Under the pieces are notes generated by a model. The model was not told where the DNA came from. It did no database searches and saw nothing but the letters and a program-made list of their open reading frames with translations. A DNA stretch of 60,946 nt, counting the filler, from Bipalium vagum (lineage: Eukaryota): NCBI GenBank assembly GCA_037834085.1. It is 3 parts of 3 records of this genome, joined end to end, with 100 filler letters (N's around TTAATTAATTAA, not from the genome) between each part and the next. Parts side by side here need not be neighbours in the genome. Positions count along the whole stretch, not along the records: positions 27,286 to 44,210 come from JBBMKC010086170.1; 2 more parts are not named here. One strand, 5' to 3'. The position numbers and the translations under genes are program-made. How positions within the stretch are numbered: the first letter of the stretch is position 1; each line of letters opens with the position of its first letter. This document shows, piece by piece, positions 21,501-44,210 of this stretch.

Positions 21501-22191
21501 TAATAATAATATTAATGAATATATGGAATCTTCTGTTGAAATTCATTTGTTTATTTATTTTCATAATCGCAGTTGCACAATCACACTTTGAATACCTAGA
21601 AATTATTTTCTATTTAAGTATCGTGACAAATATTTTCAATAATCAATAACAAATAAAATGATTTCAAGAATAAAAATCGATATTGAAAAAATCTATTGTT
21701 TTTATAATTTTATTGGTTTATAAAAATAACATCGATTAAATAAAATTGTAAAGTTAATCTTTTGTGAAAAACAGTTTGTGGAATTGTTCGAAAAATGAAA
21801 AAACAAAATATTCATTTCAGCCATATTTTTCACATCTGAAAGGGAAAATGTGTCACAGAAAATAACAAAAATATTATGTAATTTTTATTATGATAAAGGA
21901 TTTTATTGAAAACCTAAAGGAAAAATGGAATCAGATCGAAATATTACAGAAATTAATTTGAAAAAGGTTAAACATTACAATTCTTTCATAAACACGAATT
22001 ATGAATCACTTGAAACTTTCAAGAAATTCAATTAACCATGCATTAATACCTGGATTAGAAATGATCCATTTTTGGAACGATTGGAAACCACACCAAAAAC
22101 TGATATCTATCAAAAGAACTTTCTCTTCAGCTTAGTTGGAGTAAAAATTAATTATCTATTGTAAAACTAAACGGTAAAAAAAATTAGGATA

Positions 22192-22350
22192 TTGGGTTGT
22201 TCGGAAAGTCACTTCACTTTTTTATATCAAATTATTTTTAGATGGCAGAAGGTCTTGGAACAAAAAGGACAATACATCATTGATTTTACAATATTTATTA
22301 CTAATAAAACTTTTGGTAACAAATATGAAGCGAGTTTCAGAACAACCCAA
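22192..22350 (+). mobile_element. mariner-derived MITE (159 bp) with TA TSD
   Basis: TIRs TTGGGTTGTTCGGAAAGTCACTTC / GAAGCGAGTTTCAGAACAACCCAA flanked by TA; retains the transposase tail RWQKVLEQKGQYII. Confidence 0.88.
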
Positions 22351-24599
22351 TATCTAAATACATCAACAGATATTCCAACTGAATAATGAAATTCAAAAAC
22401 GAAAACAAAGTTGGAAATCAAAATGCTACAGTCTTTTAGCAGAAAAATTCGAGGTAATACTCATCTTCAATCTCAGTAAAAATAGTTGCCTCTTGTTTGG
22501 GATGTACTCTTACAGTTGTTCCTTGTTTCAGATAAAGCATCTTCATATTTTCGCATAATTCACTCATTATGGGATTCTTTGAACCAGGTGACAATGGTAG
22601 TTACATTAAAATGGCTAACTAAATAGATTTAGGAACAACTCGAATGGAGCTTTTATCCCCCTATAAGTCATTAACATTCAAAGGAAATATTAAGGATATT
22701 GAAGAAAATCATTAATTGAAATTAAAAAAAATAGAATAAAATTAAAAATTGATTTTAAAAAATATGTCCTCGACCTCCAATTTATTTCCAGAAATTGTAA
22801 AAATATTGCTTTCTGAAATCATTGGAAAGTATAACTAGGTCTAAAACTAACTTCTCAGATAATGAAAAATTAATCAGTATAACAAATTAAAAATTCGATC
22901 ACACACGAAAACGTTACGGCAACGATTTGTGACTGCAGAATTTTTAAATTTTTATTTTGAACGAAATTTTTTGCAAAATTACCCCAATTATGCTTTTATC
23001 ACTCGTGGAACAGTTACCGTTTTGAGTTCTCATAAAGCGTGGTTATATTTTTCCATAAAATTGATTTCTGATATAAACTTAAACAATATTTCCAGGTCTG
23101 TAAACTTTGGAGAGATACCTATCCGTCATCATTCGCGAGGTGGTGATCTCGCTTGTTCACTTTGATACACTGGATTTTGCTATTTTCTACATTCCGATAC
23201 CTATTTTATAAATGCAGATGATGATTTTAATAAATTATTCCATTTGACACAAGTTTCCATTTTGATATGGTTTTATATATTTTTTAATTTTATTCAGAAT
23301 TTAAAACTGTTTTTATTTTTAATGTTTCAGATTTTTGTTGGACAGATGTATTTAATTATTTTTCTGTTTTATAAAATTTCATTTTTTAATTTTTCGTGGT
23401 TTTATTAGTTAAGCAAGATGTATACATACTTAGGGTATAGAAATTAACAAATTGATTTAAACAAAATAAAATCATAATAATAAAAAAACAACTTCGGTAA
23501 AATTATTGACAAGGCTATGAAGTTGATTTTTATAATTTAGGCTTTATTATGGACAAATTAATCAAAATATTTTTAAAAACTGAAACCAATAATTATAAAA
23601 TTTTTTTTAATGAATTGTCTACGTATGATCTTCACTCTTCATTTTTACCCTACTACATGATTACTTTTTAAAAAATTATGAATCATGGTATTGTGAATTT
23701 TGTAAAAAATCTCTTTAAAAAGTCATGAAGGTACGATAAACCATGAGATTAACCTTATAAATTCAGAGAAAAATGATATTTTTTAAATTTATATTTTAAA
23801 CCTTAGATCTCGATTTATTTCATGCATTTCCCTACTACTATAGAACTATTATAAATTGTGATTTTACTACACCGTTTTTTATTGAAAATAACATTTTTGA
23901 TTTTACAAAATCTATGAAAAACATTTAATTAAAAATGATGAATAAAAATATCACCCAACAATATCTAAACCAAATATGGATAAAAATCAATCTACTTAAT
24001 TTGGTGAAATCAAAGTTTCAACAATAAAAAGCTTTTGTTGGTATTCAAAATCTAAAGGTCATAATGAAAATTTATTTAATAGATACAACTTATTTAATGA
24101 CTTACCTAATAACGAATTAATTAATTCAAAATCTCGGGAACTCTAGATACAAATTTTTGAATAGGAAATTTTTAAAGAAAAAACAACTATTTTTACATCT
24201 TTAAAATCAACATTAAAGTGGTAATGAAAATTCAATGTTTAATGTTATGCATAATCTTTATTTTCTTTTTAAAAAATATCTAAAACATTTTTGTGAGCTT
24301 TGCAATAATTTTTTAAAAATAAGTATTAATAATACAATTTCACTATCTTTCTTTACTTTATTTTTTTCTCTATCTGTTCTTTCATTTTTTCTTTTCAATA
24401 TTAAACATTTTTCCATAAACTTTTCTTATAACAAAACAACATTCGTTTTACCTTTAAAATATGAATCTTTTAAAATATGTAAAGTTACAACTGCACCATT
24501 AAAACATCAATTTTATGGTTGATCTCTTAAATCAAAACGAAAGATGGAATATAAATTTTAAAATTTTAATAAATTTAGTTGAAGATTATTACTTAAGTA

Positions 24600-25098
24600 T
24601 TTGAAGATTTGACAAAAGGTTATGATTTCCCTTTTTTGGAACTGTGACGGTATGTTGTTTTTTGAACTTCTACCAGATGGTCAAAGCATAACCTCGGACA
24701 CTTACTCATCACAATTGAAAAATCTTCATGATGTTATGAAAGTAAATTATCCTTATTTAATCAACCCTAAAAATATTGACGGAATGGAACTCTTACCGCA
24801 TCCGCCTTACTCGCTAGACATTGCAGCCTCTGACTTTCATCTGTTTTGTTCCATGGCACATTTTCTCAAAGGTCGGCGGTTTGAAGATAATGAAGACCTT
24901 CAGAAGAACCTCCAACTTTTCTTCGACTCCAAACCATCGGATTGGTACAAAAGTGGGATCCAAAAAATTTCAGAAAATTTGGGCCCTTGTTTGTGCAAAT
25001 GATGGATATTATTTTAGTAACTGATATTTGTTTTGTGCAATAAAATTTTTAAAAAGAATTTTTATTCAAAACGCTCATTTTTTATGGAACACTCTAAT
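24600..25098 (+). mobile_element. mariner 3' half with internal deletion
   Basis: KVMISLFWNCDGMLFFELLP...LPHPPYSLDIAASDFHLF...FFDSKPSDWYKSGI. Confidence 0.9.
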
Positions 25099-25335
25099 AT
25101 TTACATGCTTTTTCATAATTTGAATGAGTTCTATTATTTTTAAAATTTTCAAATTGTTTAGGATTTAAAGGATAGTATGAACTATTAACTTGAACTCTTA
25201 TATCTTTTATTTCATGTTCAATAAACAAACTATTATTTTTATTAAAATTAAATTCTGATTCCCTAAAAGAAATAAATATATAAATTGGTTTATTTGGTAC
25301 ATTATATAATTGTAATGTTTGTATAGTTCATTCTG

Positions 25336-25620
25336 TTAAATTTCTTCACAATGACTTGATAAAAAATTTATATTTATAGATTTTCCATCATCTATTCTTG
25401 ACAAAAGATTTGCTTCACTAGATGTATTTAATTGTAATTTTGGAATAAATAATTTTAATTCAAGTAATTTTATTTTAGAGTCTCTTTTTGTTCCATAAAA
25501 TATTTCTTTATCAATATCAATTCTTCTTGTAAATGCTAATTCTCCTTGCATGTTATAAATTACTCTCTTATAATATTGTAAAAATACAAACATTATTTTT
25601 AATGGAAATTCTCCTTTATT
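25336..25620 (-). mobile_element. Polinton/Maverick (adintovirus-like) major capsid protein fragment
   Basis: FLQYYKRVIYNMQGELAFTR...KIKLLELKLFIPKLQLNTSSEANLLSRIDDGKSININF resembles the Polinton MCP pattern FxxDYxKIxxxxKxELILTR...KIxWxxPHVxL...xxGKxIxIxF. Confidence 0.6.
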
Positions 25621-27185
25621 ATTTTAATAAAAACTTTTTCTAGTTTTATATCCTTTATTATCTTTAGCTGATCCTCACTTTCTTTATCGGGAATCCAACA
25701 AATATTTGTCCATTTTTACTTATATTATTATCATAACAAAATTAATTTGAGAATTTCATGGACACACATTTTCAATTGTTTTTATTTCAGTTGATACCTA
25801 ATTTTAAGTGGTATTAGAAAATAAATATGGAAAGAAGTTATTTTGTAAGGTTATATTTTCATCAGCTTTTATATATTTTTTTAAAAATAATAATTCTGTT
25901 ATATTTAAGATGATAACATAATAGGTTTTATTATATTTAATAGAGAATTTCGCACATTCGGTGCTTGAGCCTTCAGGTCATAATTACCTTTAATTTGATT
26001 TACAAACCGTCCAAATCGGAGTACTAGATCAAAAGTTAAAGATCTGCCACAACCAGGATTTGAACCACCAGCCTTTATTCCAGATGAGATTTAAGTAAAA
26101 ATTGATAAAGCCCTTCAGACCTCTTTTCCTTTTTAAAACATTAAGTTTTGATTACCATATTCATAAATTTATCTAATATGGTTGAAAAATTGATTTTGTA
26201 AGACTAGGTGGCCGAACCGATAGAGACTCAGTCAGTAATTAAATGTTTGATGGTTCAAGTCTTTTGTTAATCTTATCTCAGTTTAAAATAAATTTAAGAT
26301 GAAATAAAGATACTTTAAAAATAAAAAGTATGCACAATGTTGGCTTAGCCAAGGACATATCCTTGTTAACCCTTTTAAAAATTATATGTTAAAGGCCACA
26401 AAAGGGTCAGGAGTAAAATAATAATAATAATACTAAAAATAATAATTAATTAAAAAGTACAAACTTAATTAAAACAAAAAAGGTAATTAATTATTTTCTA
26501 AAAACGATTTAAACTTGACAATGGCGAACCTAAATTTCCAAGATTAGATCAGGGTCTGCAAGGAGAGAATTAAAGAGCTAAAAAGGGAATTGACATTCCC
26601 CATTGATAAAACTGTTCTACGACTGATTGATCGTCTGACCAGAGTAGTATTTAAGGAGTTAGAATCCGCAGTGGATCGTCATAACAATTTCTGAGAGAAA
26701 TTTTCGTCAGAAGACTAAAAAGTTTTTGCAGCTAGTAAATAATTCTTTATGCCTTCTATGCGACAAGAGCTCACGGTGGGTCCTATGACTCGCACCTTCG
26801 GACCAACCAATTCAATCCAGCCAAAACAATCAAAACCCTCAAAACAAGAACATTATTGATTTTAAACATTTTAGTGATTATTTAGTGATTCATTTGTTGT
26901 ATAAAAAAATATATAATTTGTGTAATTTTATTTATTTGTGAAAGTTAAAACCCGGAATTTGATTTTAATAATGCTCTTTCTCGTCTGTTTAATATAAATA
27001 TAAAATAGAATATAAAATATAAAACAAAATAATAAAATAATGTATATAAAATAAAAAATTATTATTATTATAATTAATTAAAAAATTAATCATTTTGATG
27101 ATTAATTTATAAACTATTTGGAAAAAATTGTTTAGTAAAAAAAAGTTACGATAAATAATTTTTTCAGTAAAAATTTTAATCAATG

Positions 27186-27285
27186 NNNNNNNNNNNNNNN
27201 NNNNNNNNNNNNNNNNNNNNNNNNNNNNNTTAATTAATTAANNNNNNNNNNNNNNNNNNNNNNNNNNNNNNNNNNNNNNNNNNNN
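27186..27285. other. assembly gap (44 N + TTAATTAATTAA + 44 N)
   Basis: Directly visible; artificial six-frame stop linker. Confidence 0.98.
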
Positions 27286-27559
27286 AAATATTATTTGTCG
27301 CTTCTGTTGCCTTGACACCGGTTTTAAACTGAAAGAGCATGCAATGTCGAATATACTCTTTATTGAAATCCATAATTTTTATCTACAAATTTATAATTTT
27401 TTCAAATTAATTTTATAAATAATTAACGACTTATACCTGTACTAATTAATTATTAAATTTAAATATTCGTCAAGTTGTTTAAATATTATTATAATATTAT
27501 TTAAACAACTTCACAAAATGATATTTAAAAAACGAATTTACTATTTCCTTAATCCAATA
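27286..27559 (-). mobile_element. mariner 5' end truncated by the gap
   Basis: MDFNKEYIRHCMLFQFKTGVKATEATNN plus a TIR-like end at ~27530-27559. Confidence 0.75.
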
Positions 27560-27564
27560 TTTTA

Positions 27565-28096
27565 AAGGTTAAGTTAATGAAATGTCATTTATATATTTTT
27601 CCAGTTAGAATGATTGAAAAAAAAGCAGTAATTCGGACAATATTACGTCATCATCGGAAAAAAAGTCTATCAGCTACAGATGCGACTAGAGAAATTTGCG
27701 ACGTGGATGGCAGGAAGGCACTCAAGGAAAATGAGGTCCAGTCGTGGTTTCGTCGTTTTAATCAAGGAGATATCGGTCTAGAAGATCAAGAACGTTCAGG
27801 TCAAACATCGGTGGTGAAGAAAGAAGAGTTTTGTGCCCTAGCCCAGTACAAGTACCTGAAGCCTGTCAGAGGGGCTCAAGCATTCTCAAAGCACCATCGT
27901 TCATCATCTGAATAACATGGGTTTTGTAAATAAAAATCCCCTCTGAGTTCGCTACGAATTGACAGATAATCAAGCCAAGTGTCGAGTTGATCTTTGTCGC
28001 GAATTACTCCAGAATCCCAAAGACAAACGCTTTTAGAGGCGCATTATTACAGGTGATGAAAAGTGGGTTTTCTTCTGTAATTCCAGTAAAGGTAAT
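27565..28096 (+). mobile_element. mariner 5' half (left flank of the viral insert)
   Basis: ATDATREICDVDG...VQSWFRRFNQGDIGLEDQERSGQ, then RIITGDEKWVFFCN, ending abruptly at ~28096. Confidence 0.92.
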
Positions 28097-29037
28097 TAAT
28101 AAATCTTCTGGATCTAGAAGAGTGTTTTGCAAAAAATTATATATTACTCTTCGGTTGTAAGACAAATCAATAGATCGTCTTTTCGGATCATCCAGACTTT
28201 TTATCAGAGCTGGAAGGTCGCTAGACAATGCCTTGTCTAAAAGTGTCGCTAAGTTAAAACCCACTTTAATCGGGAAGGTTTTCTTTCCTTCTGTTTGTAA
28301 CCAGTCCAACTTGTTATAGTTTTTGTTGTACTTGTCTAAATGCCTGTTGTTTATTAGACAGTCACGAACTTCACTTTCTTCGGGAAAAGGAGGGATTCAC
28401 ACGGAGAGATGTTGAGACAGACCTTATACTTTTGTTTGTAATGGGAGCTGACCATTTCGATGAAATCTGCTGTTAGATTATTGATGTCAGTTTCTATAAT
28501 CTGTTTCTCTTTCCGTCCTATGTCTTTGAGTTTATTAAGACCAGCAATAGAGTCTGTGAATGAATGCCCCCAGTGCCCGTATAAGCCGAACAGTTGATAG
28601 TAAATGTTAGGGTTTGTGTTGTTATCGAACATTGACATGAATTTGTTTACCAACAGTTCTACTTTTGAGATGTTTTCGCATGTGCCAACTAATAATTGTT
28701 TGATAGCATCTGTGAATGAAGAAAAGATAGAGTTATAGAAGATGGGTTCTGTGTTTAGCAAATCCCCTTCTACATTCTTAAACATCAAGGAGATGCACAA
28801 TGGCTCAACCATTTTTATAATGTCATATGCTCGATTGTCGTACTTGTCTAGAAACGTGTCAAAATATTGATAAAAATCCATGATCATTGGATTGCTCGCT
28901 GTATTGCATTTTTCTAGATTTGAGGGGTTAGAGTGTTTTACCCACGAGTAGAAGAGAGTGTGTGTATCGCCATGGCGATTTTGTTTTTTTAAAATCTAGA
29001 AGACAAGAGATCAGCAATGATTAAAAAAGTCTGTCAG
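28097..29037 (-). pseudogene. endogenous viral element: rhabdovirus-like (Mononegavirales) L polymerase N-terminal fragment, conserved region I
   Basis: About 310 codons with a few frameshifts/stops: LIIADLLSSRF; YDIIKMVEPLC (VSV YDLIKMVEPIC); QLFGLYGHWGHSFTDSIAGLNKLK (VSV [21 protein letters not shown]); DWLQTEGKKTFPIKVGFNLATLLDKALS; RRVIYNFL. Confidence 0.9.
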
Positions 29038-29222
29038 CTGAAAAATAAAATAGCCGATTTCTTCGACTCAAATAAATCTGAGTGGTATCGCCATGGAATT
29101 GAACAATAGGCAGAAAGATTACTTCTAGTTAGAAAAGCTGATGGATAAATGTGACCTGTATTAAAAAATTTTGTAAATAAAATATTTGCGTAAGACCATG
29201 AATAACTTCACTCAACGTGATA
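29038..29222 (+). mobile_element. mariner 3' end (right flank of the viral insert)
   Basis: KNKIADFFDSNKSEWYRHGIEQ*AERLLLVRKADG is a mariner transposase C-terminus; TIR-like end near 29195-29222. Confidence 0.8.
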
Positions 29223-30149
29223 ATCCACAAATTTAATGTAATCTTGATATTTAAGTATGCTGATAAATAATTTACCTAAAATCCATCATGAGATTATTTC
29301 ATCAGACTTTCTAAATTTTTCAAGCATTTTTTTCTTCAACCTAGCTCAGATTGGTTATGGTTTGTAATCAATATCACCAGGTTAACTTTTTTTCAATACA
29401 TTTAAAACCACCAATTGCTTATGGTTTAATACTGTCCCAACTGATTTTGGTCTGAATTTTATAGTAATAGTCTCGCCTTGACCAATCCGTCGTCTTGGGA
29501 AAGATATTTACTATCTATTTTAAATTTTTTATTCTACCTTAGTATGTTTTATTACTGTCCACAGCAGTTAATATTTTTTTCCATTGTATTAATTTAATGT
29601 CATGGTTTCTGAGATTTCAAAAATGATTAATTAGGTTTGATTTTGGGTACTTCGAAATACCTTATATTAAATAATTTTTAAAAGTTGGTTGTGATTTTTA
29701 TTAATTATTAATAAAAATTTTCATAATAATTATTATTAATACCAAGAACCCGAAAATCTATTCTTATATATAATTTATATTTTAAATTAAATAGTAAACA
29801 AATGTTCATCAAAATTTCTGGAAAAACGATCATATTGTGGAAAAATATTAATAAATGTTAGTTATCAGAAGATATTATATTTTAAATATGAGAAACCTTG
29901 TGAGAAATAAGATCTGTTCCTAGGGTTTTTTTTAATAGAAGAATCGTCAGAATATGAAGTTTTAGGTAACGAGTCGTTATTGTTCAGACAAAATTCATTT
30001 TAATATAATCTATGTACATTATTTAGTGTCTTGATAATCTTGGAAAATAATTACAGGACGTTAAATAAGTCAGTTCTTCCTCGCAATCCTATTAAACAAT
30101 CGTATTAAAATAAATTTCAATAGAAATTTCAAAAAAAAATATTATAAAT

Positions 30150-31020
30150 TATAATTAGTTGCACCTCCTGTAGCTTTGAAAATGGAAGCCATCATGTATG
30201 GCAATGACTCATATAGTCCTTGTTTATATTTTATAGGAATATTGTACCATGTATCTTGGATTTCCTTTCAATATTCCTCAACATTTGCAACAAAGTTTCT
30301 TATTTACCTAATCATGTATCCCCATATATTCTTTATAATATTGACACCCGGAAAATTTCCAGATCAAATACATATTATTATTGCGATGTAAAAATTGTAT
30401 TGTTGATTTTGAAACATGTATAAGACTATCTTGTACCAATTTAAACTCCTTGTTTGGAAAAACTAGCGCAGGAGCTACAATATCAATATAATAAATCACT
30501 TCATATTGATATTTCTGGGAATATAAAATTCAATTAATTTGTCTCAGTGGACAAACTCTATTGTTGGAAATGACACACCAAACTTGTTCATGCAACAACC
30601 TTTCTTTAGACTTTCATCGGTTCTACGTTTCGCTTTCTTAGATTTGGATTCATTTTGAATAATTTTTCATTTTAAAATATAATCGACTCTCATCCACCTC
30701 TGATAGGAATGTAATTTTGCCCACTCTCTTTGTCTTTGACCTTGTTTTAAATGTAGTTACGGTTTTGTAACATCACACATCTTTTTAAAGAAAACTGCCT
30801 AAAATTTTTTGTATCCAAACTTTACTAATTTTTCTTGAAGTTTGCTCATAAAATTGATATGAAATGGAGCTTAAACTGGAAAAATGGCTCCAGAGTAAAA
30901 ACCTCGTTTAGACACATCACACAAAATGTTTTCTTCATTATTATAACTTCTCGCATGAAGAACTGTTACAATTGCCATTCTATTTTCTTTCGAGATAAAT
31001 TTAACCATTTTTTCTAAAAA
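30150..31020 (-). mobile_element. degenerate Tc1-like transposase
   Basis: VWCVISNNRVCPL...LVFPNKEFKLVQD...WSGNFPGVNIIKNIWG...GLYESLPYMMASIFKATGGATNY. Confidence 0.75.
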
Positions 31021-32409
31021 ACGAAAAAAATTAATTTAAAAATTAAATAAAAAGATTATTATGAAATCTTTATTATTGTTTGTAAACTGTTCTATTAAGA
31101 ATTTCAAGTATGGCGCTGGGGATTTTTTTTCACACATGAAATCTTTGTGATATATGAATCTTTTATTACACGATATTTTATTGTTAAGAAAATATATAAC
31201 AATAAAATACTTAATCATTCATTAAATCGATAAATAAATAAATAAATATATATATATATTGTAAATGAATTTGAAAAATAGATAATGGTAGATATGAAAT
31301 TCATCTTATTCTTTGAAAATTTAATTTCCATTGAGGCTTTGGCATATTTCATGTAGTCCACCTATGCCAGTACACATATAGGTTCTGATTTCTTTTTAAT
31401 TACCTTTGGTTTATAAATGAATAAACTTGCGTAGCATGTCAGATAACACAAAGTATTTGATTTTTTAGTGTGTAGGCAAGGCCATCTTTTCTCAATCTTT
31501 GGCTCAAAACCTTTTTCTGTCGTCTCATTTTTTATCTAAAATAAATTTCAATTATAAGAAATCTAAGAATATTCAAAAATATTGTAATGTATAAAAAAAC
31601 AACTATTTATTTCTTATAAATTTATTGAAATTTTAAAGTAATGTATAATATTGTATTAATCTAAAAAATAAGTTTGCCAAAAAACCTATATATACAATTA
31701 TTAGGTTGACTGAAAAGTGCTGTCTGCTTTTTATGCAATAGCTTTAAAGCAAAAATATTTTATTCGAATAATATTATATTTATTGATAAATAATAATAAG
31801 ACAGGTGAGATCTTATTAAATTAAAACCTCTTTATTATTTTAAGTTAGTTTTAATAATATAAAATGCTATTTAAAAGACTAAGACAACGACGCCAATTAG
31901 AACTTGCTTACATTATAAATATAAGTTAAAAAATATGCACCAGAGGCGGTGTCAATTACTAAACAACATGTTCAGCATTTGGTTCAAACGGTTCCTTTTT
32001 GTAGAGACATCCATTGAATAACGGTGTCGTTGAGGTCCACCTCTTATTGGTAATAACTGTTTAAAAGCCAAGATCGAGTCCAACCTTCAACAATCAACAG
32101 TTTGTGGTCATCTTAAAATTATATACCGGTTTATTAAATATTGAAAAATTGTTTGAATATTATTATGTTTTAAAACATTAATAAATTGATTAAAGTAATA
32201 GTCTGATTAAAATTACAAAGATTATTAAACAGTTAATTGAAAAGGTAAGTTTTTTAACTGAAATAAAATTCTGAAAAAATAAATTTGAAAACACACTGAC
32301 TGTTTTTAAATAGGTTATTGGTTATTCAAGATTTAGAAGAAATTTCTTTATTATTATAATACACGTCTCCTATAACCGTTTGACAAGTTTTAACAGCTTC
32401 TGATGAATC

Positions 32410-33497: not shown

Positions 33498-34800
33498 ACG
33501 GGTGGCCAATAGAGAATGATAATTCTTTGAATGACATTTGACTTAGACAGCATAATGTTAAATTAACTCAATTAAAAGTATTTAATAAAGAATCAAACCA
33601 AAATTTACTTAATTAAAACAGTTTATTAAACAGTCTATTACTTAATTAAACAGTCTGTCCAAAACTCTTTGTCGAAGGCAATCGATGGCTTGGCGAATCA
33701 TATTTAATGGAATTTCTACAATTGTTTAATTTTTTCAATCAGTTTTGTACGATTTTCAAATTTTTTGGTTATCAGTCTCTGTGATACTACTTCCCAAAAG
33801 AAATAATCAAGAGGACTAAGATCTGGTGAATTTAGTGGCCAATGATTTAGAGCTATTCTTGAAATACCAGTCTTTTTGAATGCTAAAATCGTTTCTTTGC
33901 TTCTGTGACAGGTGACCATTCTTATGATATATGAAATCGCTTCCAATGAGCTCCCTTCCACATTTTGCAACGATTGGAAGTACATTTGATATGTAAAATC
34001 TTTTATCAAAAGATGTTTTTATCGGTGAGAATAAAGGTTTCGTCGGACCCTGATATTTCAATTCAACCCATACCATTACTTTCAAAGGATATTTTCTCTT
34101 TGGAAAAACGCTACCTTTTAAATTTGCATCTTTTTCTAGACACAGCATAAACGACGTCGTGTGAATTAAACTGACTATCTGCATCAAAATATTTTTCATC
34201 ACTAAACAATTTTGTTCTCTGCCTGTTTACTAAATCTTTTTCTTAACCAACATGAGTACGTCTTTCGTCTATTGATTTGGGACTCAGATAGATATGGAAC
34301 TTTTATTTTCCTGTAGCACTTAAATCCCAAGTCATTATGTATATTATTTCCAATAGTTCCTCTTGAACATTTGAAATCTAAAGCTAACTTTCTTGCTGAT
34401 TTTTGTTTGTTTGTTGTAAGATTTCTGTTAATTTTTTGATAAATGTTTTCGTTCTTACGGTTCTTGGACATCCAGGGGAATTTCGAGCAAGTAATGATTT
34501 TTCCTCTTATTAGTTTAGTCCATCTATAAATAGTGAACTTTGGTACCCATTTTGCTACAGCTTCATAAATTTCTTCCGGCGTTTTCACATTTTCATGAGT
34601 TTTTATCAAATTTCTTACACAGCTCTCATACGTCATTATCTAAAAGAAAATATTGCTAAAAATAACATAAGTTTATTTTGCAAGATATTAAAAACTTAAA
34701 TTAAATTGATATTTAATCAATTAATAATTCAAATTAAATTTTTTTTAGTTTAAAATAATAATGTATTTAAACAATTTATCATTCTTTATTGGCCCCCCTT
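33498..34800 (-). mobile_element. near-complete DD37D (maT)-type Tc1/mariner element
   Basis: TIRs ACGGGTGGCCAATAGAGAATGATA / TATCATTCTTTATTGGCCCCCCT with TA flanks; SARKLA HTH, SDEKYF, KVMVW and WPLNSPDLSPLDYFFW; frameshifted. Confidence 0.88.
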
Positions 34801-35035: not shown

Positions 35036-36067
35036 AAGTGGGATCTCTCAAAAGTGACCACTTTTTTAAAGTTCTGGTCACATTTTGATAGGTGGTCACT
35101 TTTCTGAAAAAATGTAAAGAATAATAAAATTAAAAGCAAAATTGGTATGTCAAACATTTATTTCACGAAATATCTTAATATATTTTCATGTTGTAGCTTG
35201 ACCGACTGCAAGAGCGTATTTTCTAGCAAGTATATACCGTTTAATTTATCAGGGGAGTATTCAGTAGCATATTTTTTAGAATCATACAAAATTTGATAAA
35301 TATCATCTTTTTGAATCGAACTTGTATTTTCATCAGAACTGTTTCCATTTCTTGTTATCATACTTTTGTTGGCCATCGTTTAATGAAACAAGGCAGTCTC
35401 GTCACAATTAAAAATGTCTTATAAGTCATGTGTTATAAATTTCAGTTATGGTACCTAAAAATCTTTTGCACCATCATAATTTGCAGAGACTGCTTCTCCG
35501 ACTAATTTTCTTGATTTTCTGCAACCAACTGGAAGAAGCCTTAAAATTGTTAATATGAATACCATTAGCATTTTTTAAAGCAAAGATTTTAGTCATCGGA
35601 CCAGATACCGGAATGCCTTGGCTTCTTAACCTGTCAAACATATCAGGCACACAATTTTCTATTATAAATTGGAAATTTTACCTTTCCAATGAAACCTTTT
35701 ACCTTTTCCCTGACTTCGGTTTTGCAAATTAATTAAATCTTTTCAGACCATATTTTCTGTATAGCTGCCTTGGTAACGCCATATTTCGCAGCCAATTTTC
35801 TTTGTGATGATTTTTTTGTAATAGCTTTTCAAGTATTTCTCTATTCTGATTATTATTTAATTTTCTCATTCTAATTAAATTTTATCATAAATTCAAAATG
35901 TTATTTATTACTATTATTTAAACAAAAATATTTACCGGTCAGCTTTTCTTGATATTTTTTAAAAGTTTATACTGGACATTTAGCCTAACTTTAACAAAAT
36001 TTAAATATGGTCAATTTAATAGAGGTGGTCACCAAAATCTTGCGGTGACTTTTGAGAGGTCCCACTG
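35036..36067 (-). mobile_element. internally deleted pogo/Tigger element
   Basis: TIRs AAGTGGGATCTCTCAAAAGTGACC / GGTGACTTTTGAGAGGTCCCACTG with TA flanks; CENP-B-type HTH (SQRKLAAKYGV, GIPVSGP, FKASSSWL) and IFNCDETALF; a related solo TIR lies at ~10563-10612. Confidence 0.88.
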
Positions 36068-43959: not shown

Positions 43960-44210
43960 AACTTTCAAGATTTTAATCCGGATACTTTTTAGTAGATTTT
44001 CAAAATTAAAAATTTTAGATGATTTTACAAAAGCAATTTATTAGAAAATCTTGTCTAATTCGATTTAAAGTTGAAACAGAAGTTCCAATTTTATTTGCAA
44101 TTTGTTCTTGTGTTAAAGTTGGATTAAAAGATTTTGCTTTTGTAAAATCATCTAAAATTTTTAATTTTGAAAATCTACTAAAAAGTATCCGGATTAAAAT
44201 CTTGAAAGTT
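43960..44210. repeat. perfect 77-bp inverted repeat (43960-44036 / 44134-44210) abutting a gap
   Basis: The arms are exact reverse complements. Confidence 0.95.

Follow-up and report, generated by a model that had tools for sequence, protein, structure and literature searches.

The locus examined here (27565..29222) lies in a window of 60,946 nt from Bipalium vagum, by which we mean the whole stretch of DNA that was analysed. The window is AT-rich animal DNA (GC 17-38% per kb) with two gaps, one of which ends at 27285; it holds a tektin (tektin-2-like) gene and an ion-channel gene, and Rfam and tRNA scans of it came back empty. At the locus, two mariner halves on the plus strand flank ~930 nt of minus-strand sequence from the L gene of a member of Mononegavirales, and this antisense viral sequence takes the place of the middle of the transposase (Table 1). 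The mariner/viral composite is a genuine structure, and the viral fragment is a single broken piece of ~0.9 kb within one dead mariner copy.

Table 1. Features of the mariner/viral composite, in window coordinates.
Feature	Position	Strand	Evidence
Mariner 5' untranslated part	27564..27609	+	High summed contig depth 27564-27627; family loose end 27594
Transposase residues 1-79, first HTH	27610..27846	+	65% / 63% to P0095 / P0096; PF17906 E 1e-12
Transposase residues 82-166, post-frameshift, 3 stops, first catalytic Asp retained	27842..28095	+	71% to P0095; Mos1 92-166
Left junction	immediately after 28095		17 contigs of other copies continue as mariner past 28095
Viral L piece 3, 100 codons, 0 stops	28097..28396	-	PF00946 profile 405-501, E 0.043; natural-L profile iE 6.5e-19
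Viral L piece 2, ~187 codons, 0 stops, G-H-W-G-H motif	28399..28959	-	PF00946 E 4e-23; VSV L 264-396
Likely templated insert, ~30 nt, breaks viral frame	28960..28991	.	Mariner C-half matches, score 42; L columns
Viral L piece 1, 11 codons	28992..29024	-	L columns 96-106
Right-junction stretch, likely templated filler	29023..29039	+	16/17 identical to mariner 27659-27675
Transposase residues ~303-338, one stop	29040..29145	+	65% to P0095; depth jump in bin 29036-29099
Right terminal-repeat-like end, terminates in TA	29195..29222	+	By-eye likeness to L004 3' TIR; depth end

The N-terminal half of the transposase is 70-72% identical to P0095 and P0096, both full-length at 343 aa; piece by piece it aligned to them at 63-71% identity (27610-27846 to residues 1-79, 27842-28093 to residues 82-165), and it matched HTH_48 in Pfam (E 1e-12) and Mos1 residues 92-166. 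On the same strand, the C-terminal half (29035-29145) aligned to residues 302-338 at 65% and 49% identity to P0095 and P0096. The initial annotation had described a transposase split into colinear, same-strand halves, and this arrangement is what we observed: residues 1-79, 82-165 and then 302-338, all on the plus strand. The homology is that of a mariner, with both a Mos1-type bipartite HTH and a catalytic domain represented. By alignment to the 343-aa proteins, residues ~167-301 have been deleted, which amounts to ~135 codons (~405 nt); as these residues are gone, the viral insert is a replacement and not a simple insertion. The earlier statement that the catalytic centre was missing therefore needed adjustment: the middle is indeed deleted, but the loss is ~135 codons rather than 140-150, and the first catalytic Asp (ITGDE) remains, with only the other two members of the D,D34D triad lost. 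P0095 and P0096 bear mariner catalytic motifs. With four stops in 200 codons and a frameshift, this mariner copy is dead.

Both halves belong to one mariner family, as had been proposed: each is 65-71% identical to P0095, compared with 36% for the other mariner in the window. Moreover, contigs of other family copies in sequencing run X1 join 27623 to 29166 and 28010 to 29074, indicating that the two halves come from one family and that this family includes further internally deleted copies. The other mariner (24613-25090, plus strand) is the C-terminal half of a member of a second family, in which a 22-codon internal deletion removes the second catalytic Asp; its segment 24613-24999 does not supply the missing middle. 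Related mariners were found at 80 loci in metagenome contigs, with a maximum protein identity of 61%, and at one weak locus in viral contigs. Two of the metagenome loci, L001 (212-1500) and L004 (162-1446), hold complete mariners that belong to the P0095 subfamily (56-61% identity) and have clear terminal repeats. Planarians have been reported, in the cited part of PMC3036899, to carry 10^3-10^4 mariner copies.

By eye, the right end of the element (29195-29222) looks like the L004 3' TIR, and the mariner family depth stops in bin 29164-29227 among the run X1 contigs. No left TIR was recognisable in 27286-27609, the 324 nt between the gap that ends at 27285 and the ATG (search score 20, with 83 of 179 control tiles as good), and no left partner was found in the rest of the window either. 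In six complete relatives, the left repeat begins ~174-233 nt before the ATG; a candidate picked by eye at ~27468 did not beat the controls and was dropped. The copy thus has a TIR-like right end with no partner in 27286-27609 or elsewhere in the window, and because no left TIR was found, the composite is probably immobile. An imperfect 72-nt palindrome (27458-27529) lies just upstream of the mariner 5' part, at the expected position of the left TIR, and may mark a rearrangement that removed this repeat.

On the minus strand, PF00946 (Mononeg_RNA_pol) matched two colinear segments, 28357-28995 (E 4e-23, profile 232-393) and 28097-28396 (E 0.043, profile 405-501). The best match of the viral piece to a solved structure was VSV L (5a22) at residues 264-396, also colinear. 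The short piece 1 (28992-29024) fits columns 96-106 of 71 natural L proteins, with Asp conserved in 67 of 71 and Arg in 71 of 71, and its score was reached by none of 19518 host stretches. The viral frame is broken twice, at ~28960-28991 between pieces 1 and 2 and within 28357-28396 between pieces 2 and 3. The fragment stops ~20 codons short of the invariant K-E columns (its last matching column is at 28097-28099) and so includes no polymerase catalytic motif. Matches of 28007-28396 to Internalin and Cmr3 were set aside as chance.

To place the donor virus, we relied on a full HMMER scan of 1.84 billion cluster representatives, which returned 94 L matches at E <= 0.001, none of them at 1e-10, at 24-36% identity; an earlier word-index search had turned up none of the longer relatives of this fragment. 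Among the 20 relatives looked up, 10 of the 13 named ones bore rhabdo-type names, an almendra-related virus included; the others included one arlivirus, which was the best named match, and one nematode protein. In a quick tree of the longest viral piece alone (the 187-aa piece 2 with 91 relatives, 3 of the 94 being omitted for short overlap), the fragment formed a lone branch of length 1.35 with a support of 68 and no supported sister. Judged by its sequence, the donor was a divergent mononegavirus without a close relative (~30% identity), and it was probably rhabdo-like. The fragment shares the PF00946 N-terminal region and the H-W-G-H motif with L proteins of Rhabdoviridae and rhabdo-like viruses (VSV L 5a22; Himastelon rhabdovirus 1; Hubei rhabdo-like virus 2; Erthesina fullo arlivirus 1), but it is only 24-36% identical to them and sits on a long branch of its own, and its best named match is an arlivirus, not a rhabdovirus. 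The original description, ~940 bp of rhabdovirus-like L on the opposite strand, thus stands for the antisense L sequence (~930 nt) and is a fair label for the nearest named matches, but the tree does not place the fragment in a family. A 2022 survey of 66 flatworm species recorded, in the cited part, rhabdoviruses in parasitic Neodermata only and none in free-living flatworms (PMC9241645).

Copy number was estimated from the summed depth of contigs (not reads) in run X1, the sole public run in which the locus was found; this run is possibly the assembly's own sample, its filter can leave out records, and summed contig depth is not the same as true copy number. A single run X1 contig (3204 nt, depth 26.6) spans 28055-31214, differs there at one position in 3160 nt and reaches from 41 nt left of the left junction to 2.1 kb into the right flank. 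Both junctions are therefore bridged by one contig. At 80% likeness, the depth of the insert (28140-29035) was 26.6 in 11 of 14 bins and 26.9, 29.0 and 30.8 in the others, similar to that of unique neighbouring contigs (16-29). The mariner bins were 18- to 220-fold deeper than the insert (489-5847 on the left, 1093-1564 on the right), and the depth climbs from 26.9 to 1564 within bin 29036-29099. No second L copy was found among run X1 contigs at >=80% identity or elsewhere in the window (best score -5.8), and the same searches yielded no genomic parental copy. With one contig at single-copy depth, the composite is single copy in run X1. The viral piece has two properties of an EVE: homology to an RNA-virus gene (94 L proteins, E <= 0.001) and joining to host DNA at host-like depth, the latter in one run.

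The two junctions differ in character. On the left, mariner sequence runs through 28095 and the last L-like codon is 28097-28099; a 2-nt overlap of mariner and viral sequence was considered here and dropped, as the next codon scores -2.25. Neither a target-site duplication nor poly(A) was found at either junction, so the hallmarks of a LINE-type retrocopy are absent, and the target carries a deletion instead. On the right, two short stretches resemble mariner sequence. The first, 28960-28991, has no counterpart in natural L proteins, and its part 28960-28988 matches the mariner C-half both directly (29082-29096, 15/16) and inverted (29041-29051, 10/11); the second, 29023-29039, is 16/17 identical to mariner 27659-27675. 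For the first stretch (score 42), none of 829 windows from the viral core scored as high, compared with 41 of 8559 host windows that had the same geometry and 2 of the 3379 among these with similar GC. For the second, no viral window out of 839 and 7 host windows out of 5860 did so. These counts are not strict probabilities because the windows overlap and were picked after the matches had been seen. The L signal of 29023-29039 stood at 5339/19524. These comparisons suggest that 28960-28991 is likely a templated insert and that 29023-29039 is likely templated filler, though the latter may be viral in origin.

A broader version of this interpretation was discarded. All 80 nt of 28960-29039 taken as mariner filler gave a score of 94, reached by 0/79, 0/157, 0/500, 0/585 and 0/2340 controls (6/2338 at 100 nt), but 28992-29024 proved to be viral coding sequence, which means that the score was inflated by one chance match. 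That match, one of four, was between 28995-29008 and 27777-27791; it was likewise rejected as a mariner copy, and its position in viral coding sequence illustrates that short mariner matches can arise by chance. Even so, the gap-repair background given in the initial annotation is supported in so far as the junctions have the look of break repair: there is a deletion, neither a target-site duplication nor poly(A) is present, and mariner-matching stretches lie near the right junction.

The distribution of stop codons bears on the order of events. No stop occurs in 288 viral codons, compared with 4 in 200 mariner codons (Fisher p 0.028; p 0.08 if the stop at 29034-29036 is counted as viral). On the simplest reading, the scarcity of stops in the viral part means that the mariner was already decayed when the viral sequence came in, and we consider this order probable from the codon counts. 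It agrees with the cited part of PMC8277862, in which most Pack-TIRs of the single-copy type are found to arise in elements that are resident and inactive. Selection to keep the viral frame open would also explain the few stops, but it fits poorly with the two frame breaks.

On balance, we lean towards a single-copy, broken EVE, taken up in a single event when a DNA break within a decayed mariner was mended in an error-prone way. The mariner copy is degraded and has no detectable left TIR. A host retroelement enzyme would, from what is established for such viruses, have reverse-transcribed the viral RNA. A break in the mariner would then have been resected and the viral cDNA joined nearly bluntly at the left; at the right, the exposed arms of the mariner may have served as template in a few switches of the growing strand, which was then sealed. 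Such a process would correspond to polymerase-theta-like end joining or to gap filling, with the enzyme a presumed one. The composite remained one copy in run X1 and would now be neutral, making no protein of either kind. The mariner was most likely the site of an accident and not a vehicle, and the composite is most likely neutral. Because Tc1/mariner coding remnants make up at least 6% of the window (20 intervals), a break inside one would not be a rare event. Among 59 open segments (17000-44200) and 32 window ORFs, Pfam matches included neither a reverse transcriptase nor an integrase; there is thus no local retrotransposon to credit, though decayed ones would be missed by such a scan.

Published systems offer parallels to this reading. 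According to the cited part of PMC8277862, single-copy Pack-TIRs in animals arise mostly from transposition-independent gap filling in resident elements. The cited parts of PMC2895639 and PMC4490562 describe, at polymerase-theta end joining, templated inserts that copy neighbouring sequence imperfectly and over short lengths, in either orientation; the deletion at our locus and its short, inexact matches to nearby mariner sequence, direct and inverted, are of this kind. In contrast to those cases, 0.9 kb of foreign DNA has been bridged in here, one template lies ~420 nt off, and an enzyme is not identifiable from sequence. Several points count against break repair: the mariner-matching stretches are short and were chosen after being seen, and the template at 27659-27675 sits 420 nt from the left junction, beyond the flanking templates described for polymerase theta. 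Moreover, the gap is ~30% of a typical element, compared with a median of 4.6% for Pack-TIRs (PMC8277862, cited part), and for a gap of this size an older deletion fits equally well.

Such an older deletion is the core of a two-step alternative, in which the mariner middle was lost earlier, viral cDNA was inserted later at or near the deletion, and the mariner-like stretches are chance matches or later scars. The internal deletions in other family copies (for example 28010 to 29074 and 27623 to 29166) and a gap that is large for gap filling are in keeping with it. We nevertheless find it rather unlikely: the insertion would have to fall precisely at the earlier deletion, none of the joints listed (15/23 and 15/63) is an empty 28095-to-29040 join, and the two mariner-matching stretches cluster within 80 nt of one junction.

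A further possibility is that RNA itself served as the template: the broken left mariner end would have primed reverse transcription on viral mRNA, by an endonuclease-independent LINE enzyme or a repair polymerase, and the new 3' end would have been patched to the right arm. Endonuclease-independent LINE insertions give deletions without duplications. The plus strand of the insert has the sense expected of first-strand cDNA extended from the left arm along L mRNA; its left join is clean (28095/28097) and the patching is confined to its other end. RNA-virus EVEs, moreover, generally derive from single transcripts (PMC2987831, cited part). This orientation would be expected half of the time in any case, however, no mariner/viral overlap is demonstrable at the left join (next codon -2.25), and RNA and cDNA templates are indistinguishable from sequence. 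We rate direct copying from RNA as unlikely.

The initial annotation had suggested a possible Pack-type mariner; on this reading, an active or mobilisable element took up viral DNA, moved or amplified it, and supplies antiviral antisense small RNAs. The cargo does lie between colinear halves of one family and antisense to the transposase, a right TIR-like end persists, and RNA-virus EVEs can feed piRNAs in arthropods (PMC6580184, cited part). Yet the insert is at single-copy depth, no left TIR was found, and the mariner is more decayed than its cargo. Amplification by the mariner is not supported: the first two of these observations were among three named beforehand as contrary to it, and we hold the whole proposal to be very improbable; a DNA transposon that spreads an antiviral template is not supported.

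Slightly harder still to credit is secondary capture, in which gap filling copied an older, longer EVE located elsewhere and since lost or diverged, making the locus a conventional Pack-TIR. The filler of Pack-TIRs is derived from parental copies in the genome, many of them nearby (PMC8277862, cited part), and another virus-type relic, the capsid-like fragment at 25097-25623, is close by, but no second copy at >=80% identity adds to the insert depth in run X1 (whose filter can drop records) and the window holds no further L-like stretch (best other score -5.8). An assembly chimera or contamination can be dismissed almost entirely: the sole run with the locus is possibly the assembly's own sample and the bridging contig extends just 41 nt left of the left junction, but that separately built contig repeats both junctions at host-like depth with 1 mismatch in 3160 nt, and the viral frame is broken, as expected of an integrated relic.

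The composite is best read as viral cDNA captured once, at a break, in the manner of single-copy Pack-TIRs but with viral cargo. Like the single-copy animal Pack-TIRs of Tan et al. (2021; PMC8277862, cited part), it holds foreign DNA (100-5000 nt in their set) between parts of one TIR transposon, is single copy, has internal breakpoints and probably took up its cargo after the element had settled; as in their definition, both flanks come from the same element. In contrast to Pack-TIRs, its cargo is exogenous RNA-virus sequence, no genomic parental copy was seen, the left terminus is missing, and the gap is far above their median. Because no TIR pair was found in the window and no genomic parent among run X1 contigs or in the window, we do not class the composite as a Pack-TIR. 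The pipeline of that study accepted only cases with both termini of the element and a parent sequence at 90% identity (PMC8277862, cited part), and could not have reported such a viral case.

As an EVE, the fragment belongs to a known kind. Mononegavirales L EVEs described in the cited parts of PMC2987831 and PMC6580184 are likewise broken fragments of a single gene with weak family placement, and those of insects likewise have no duplication or poly(A). Unlike them, the fragment here lies inside a DNA transposon and replaces deleted sequence, and its donor relatives are at most ~36% identical. Ixodes EVE flanks are enriched for non-LTR retrotransposons and not for Tc1/mariner, according to the cited part of PMC6580184. 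Among the open-access papers listed, no title or opening of an abstract described an RNA-virus fragment within a mariner, though the published case lists of Pack-TIRs may include a viral one.

The entry of non-retroviral viral DNA is usually ascribed to 'non-homologous recombination or retroelements' (PMC2987831, cited part). Here the target is a known repeat, which makes the deleted part and the junction stretches readable, and both point to break repair. Searches for EVEs inside high-copy DNA transposons would yield readable junctions of this kind and make the entry route testable. The fragment also records a negative-strand RNA virus without a close relative among 1.84 billion cluster representatives. 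Should the host be a planarian, the known range of rhabdo-like viruses would grow to include free-living flatworms, for which the cited part of PMC9241645 reports none. A bolder combination would have the RNA virus copied straight into the break (the broken mariner end priming, template switches sealing, and no retrotransposon insertion machinery taking part), the donor coming from a deeply branching line of mononegaviruses in free-living flatworms, and transcripts that read through from the mariner giving antisense small RNAs against it; we view this conjunction as a long shot.

The surrounding region is a graveyard of several Tc1/mariner-superfamily lineages. In addition to the mariners, it holds a Pogo/Tigger-like remnant (35161-35677, minus strand; HTH_Tnp_Tc5) and a Tc1-like remnant (33719-34639, minus strand; HTH_Tnp_Tc3_2). 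A short element at 22183-22359 with 59-nt imperfect inverted ends of mariner type is probably a MITE, and a perfect 77-nt inverted repeat that ends at a gap (43960-44210) is either a recent fold-back element or an assembly artefact. Directly after the mariner remnant on the far side of the gap ending at 27285, and 2.5 kb from the RNA-virus piece, 25097-25623 (minus strand) carries a capsid-like gene of the double-jelly-roll type in two pieces (PF21738, E 1e-9 and 0.007), a relic that is probably of Polinton or adintovirus type. A decayed frame of ~112 codons at 26521-26856 (plus strand) has several stops, a GC content above that of its flanks and no Pfam match. At 7637-7780, tandem 18-nt units in one frame encode Tyr-Tyr-Asp-Gln-Gln-Gly-like repeats. 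Finally, a 319-codon single-exon frame at 56977-57933 (minus strand) has a signal-like start, a late hydrophobic segment and no Pfam match, and its look-alikes in the atlas are leucine-rich-repeat membrane proteins (score 0.94).
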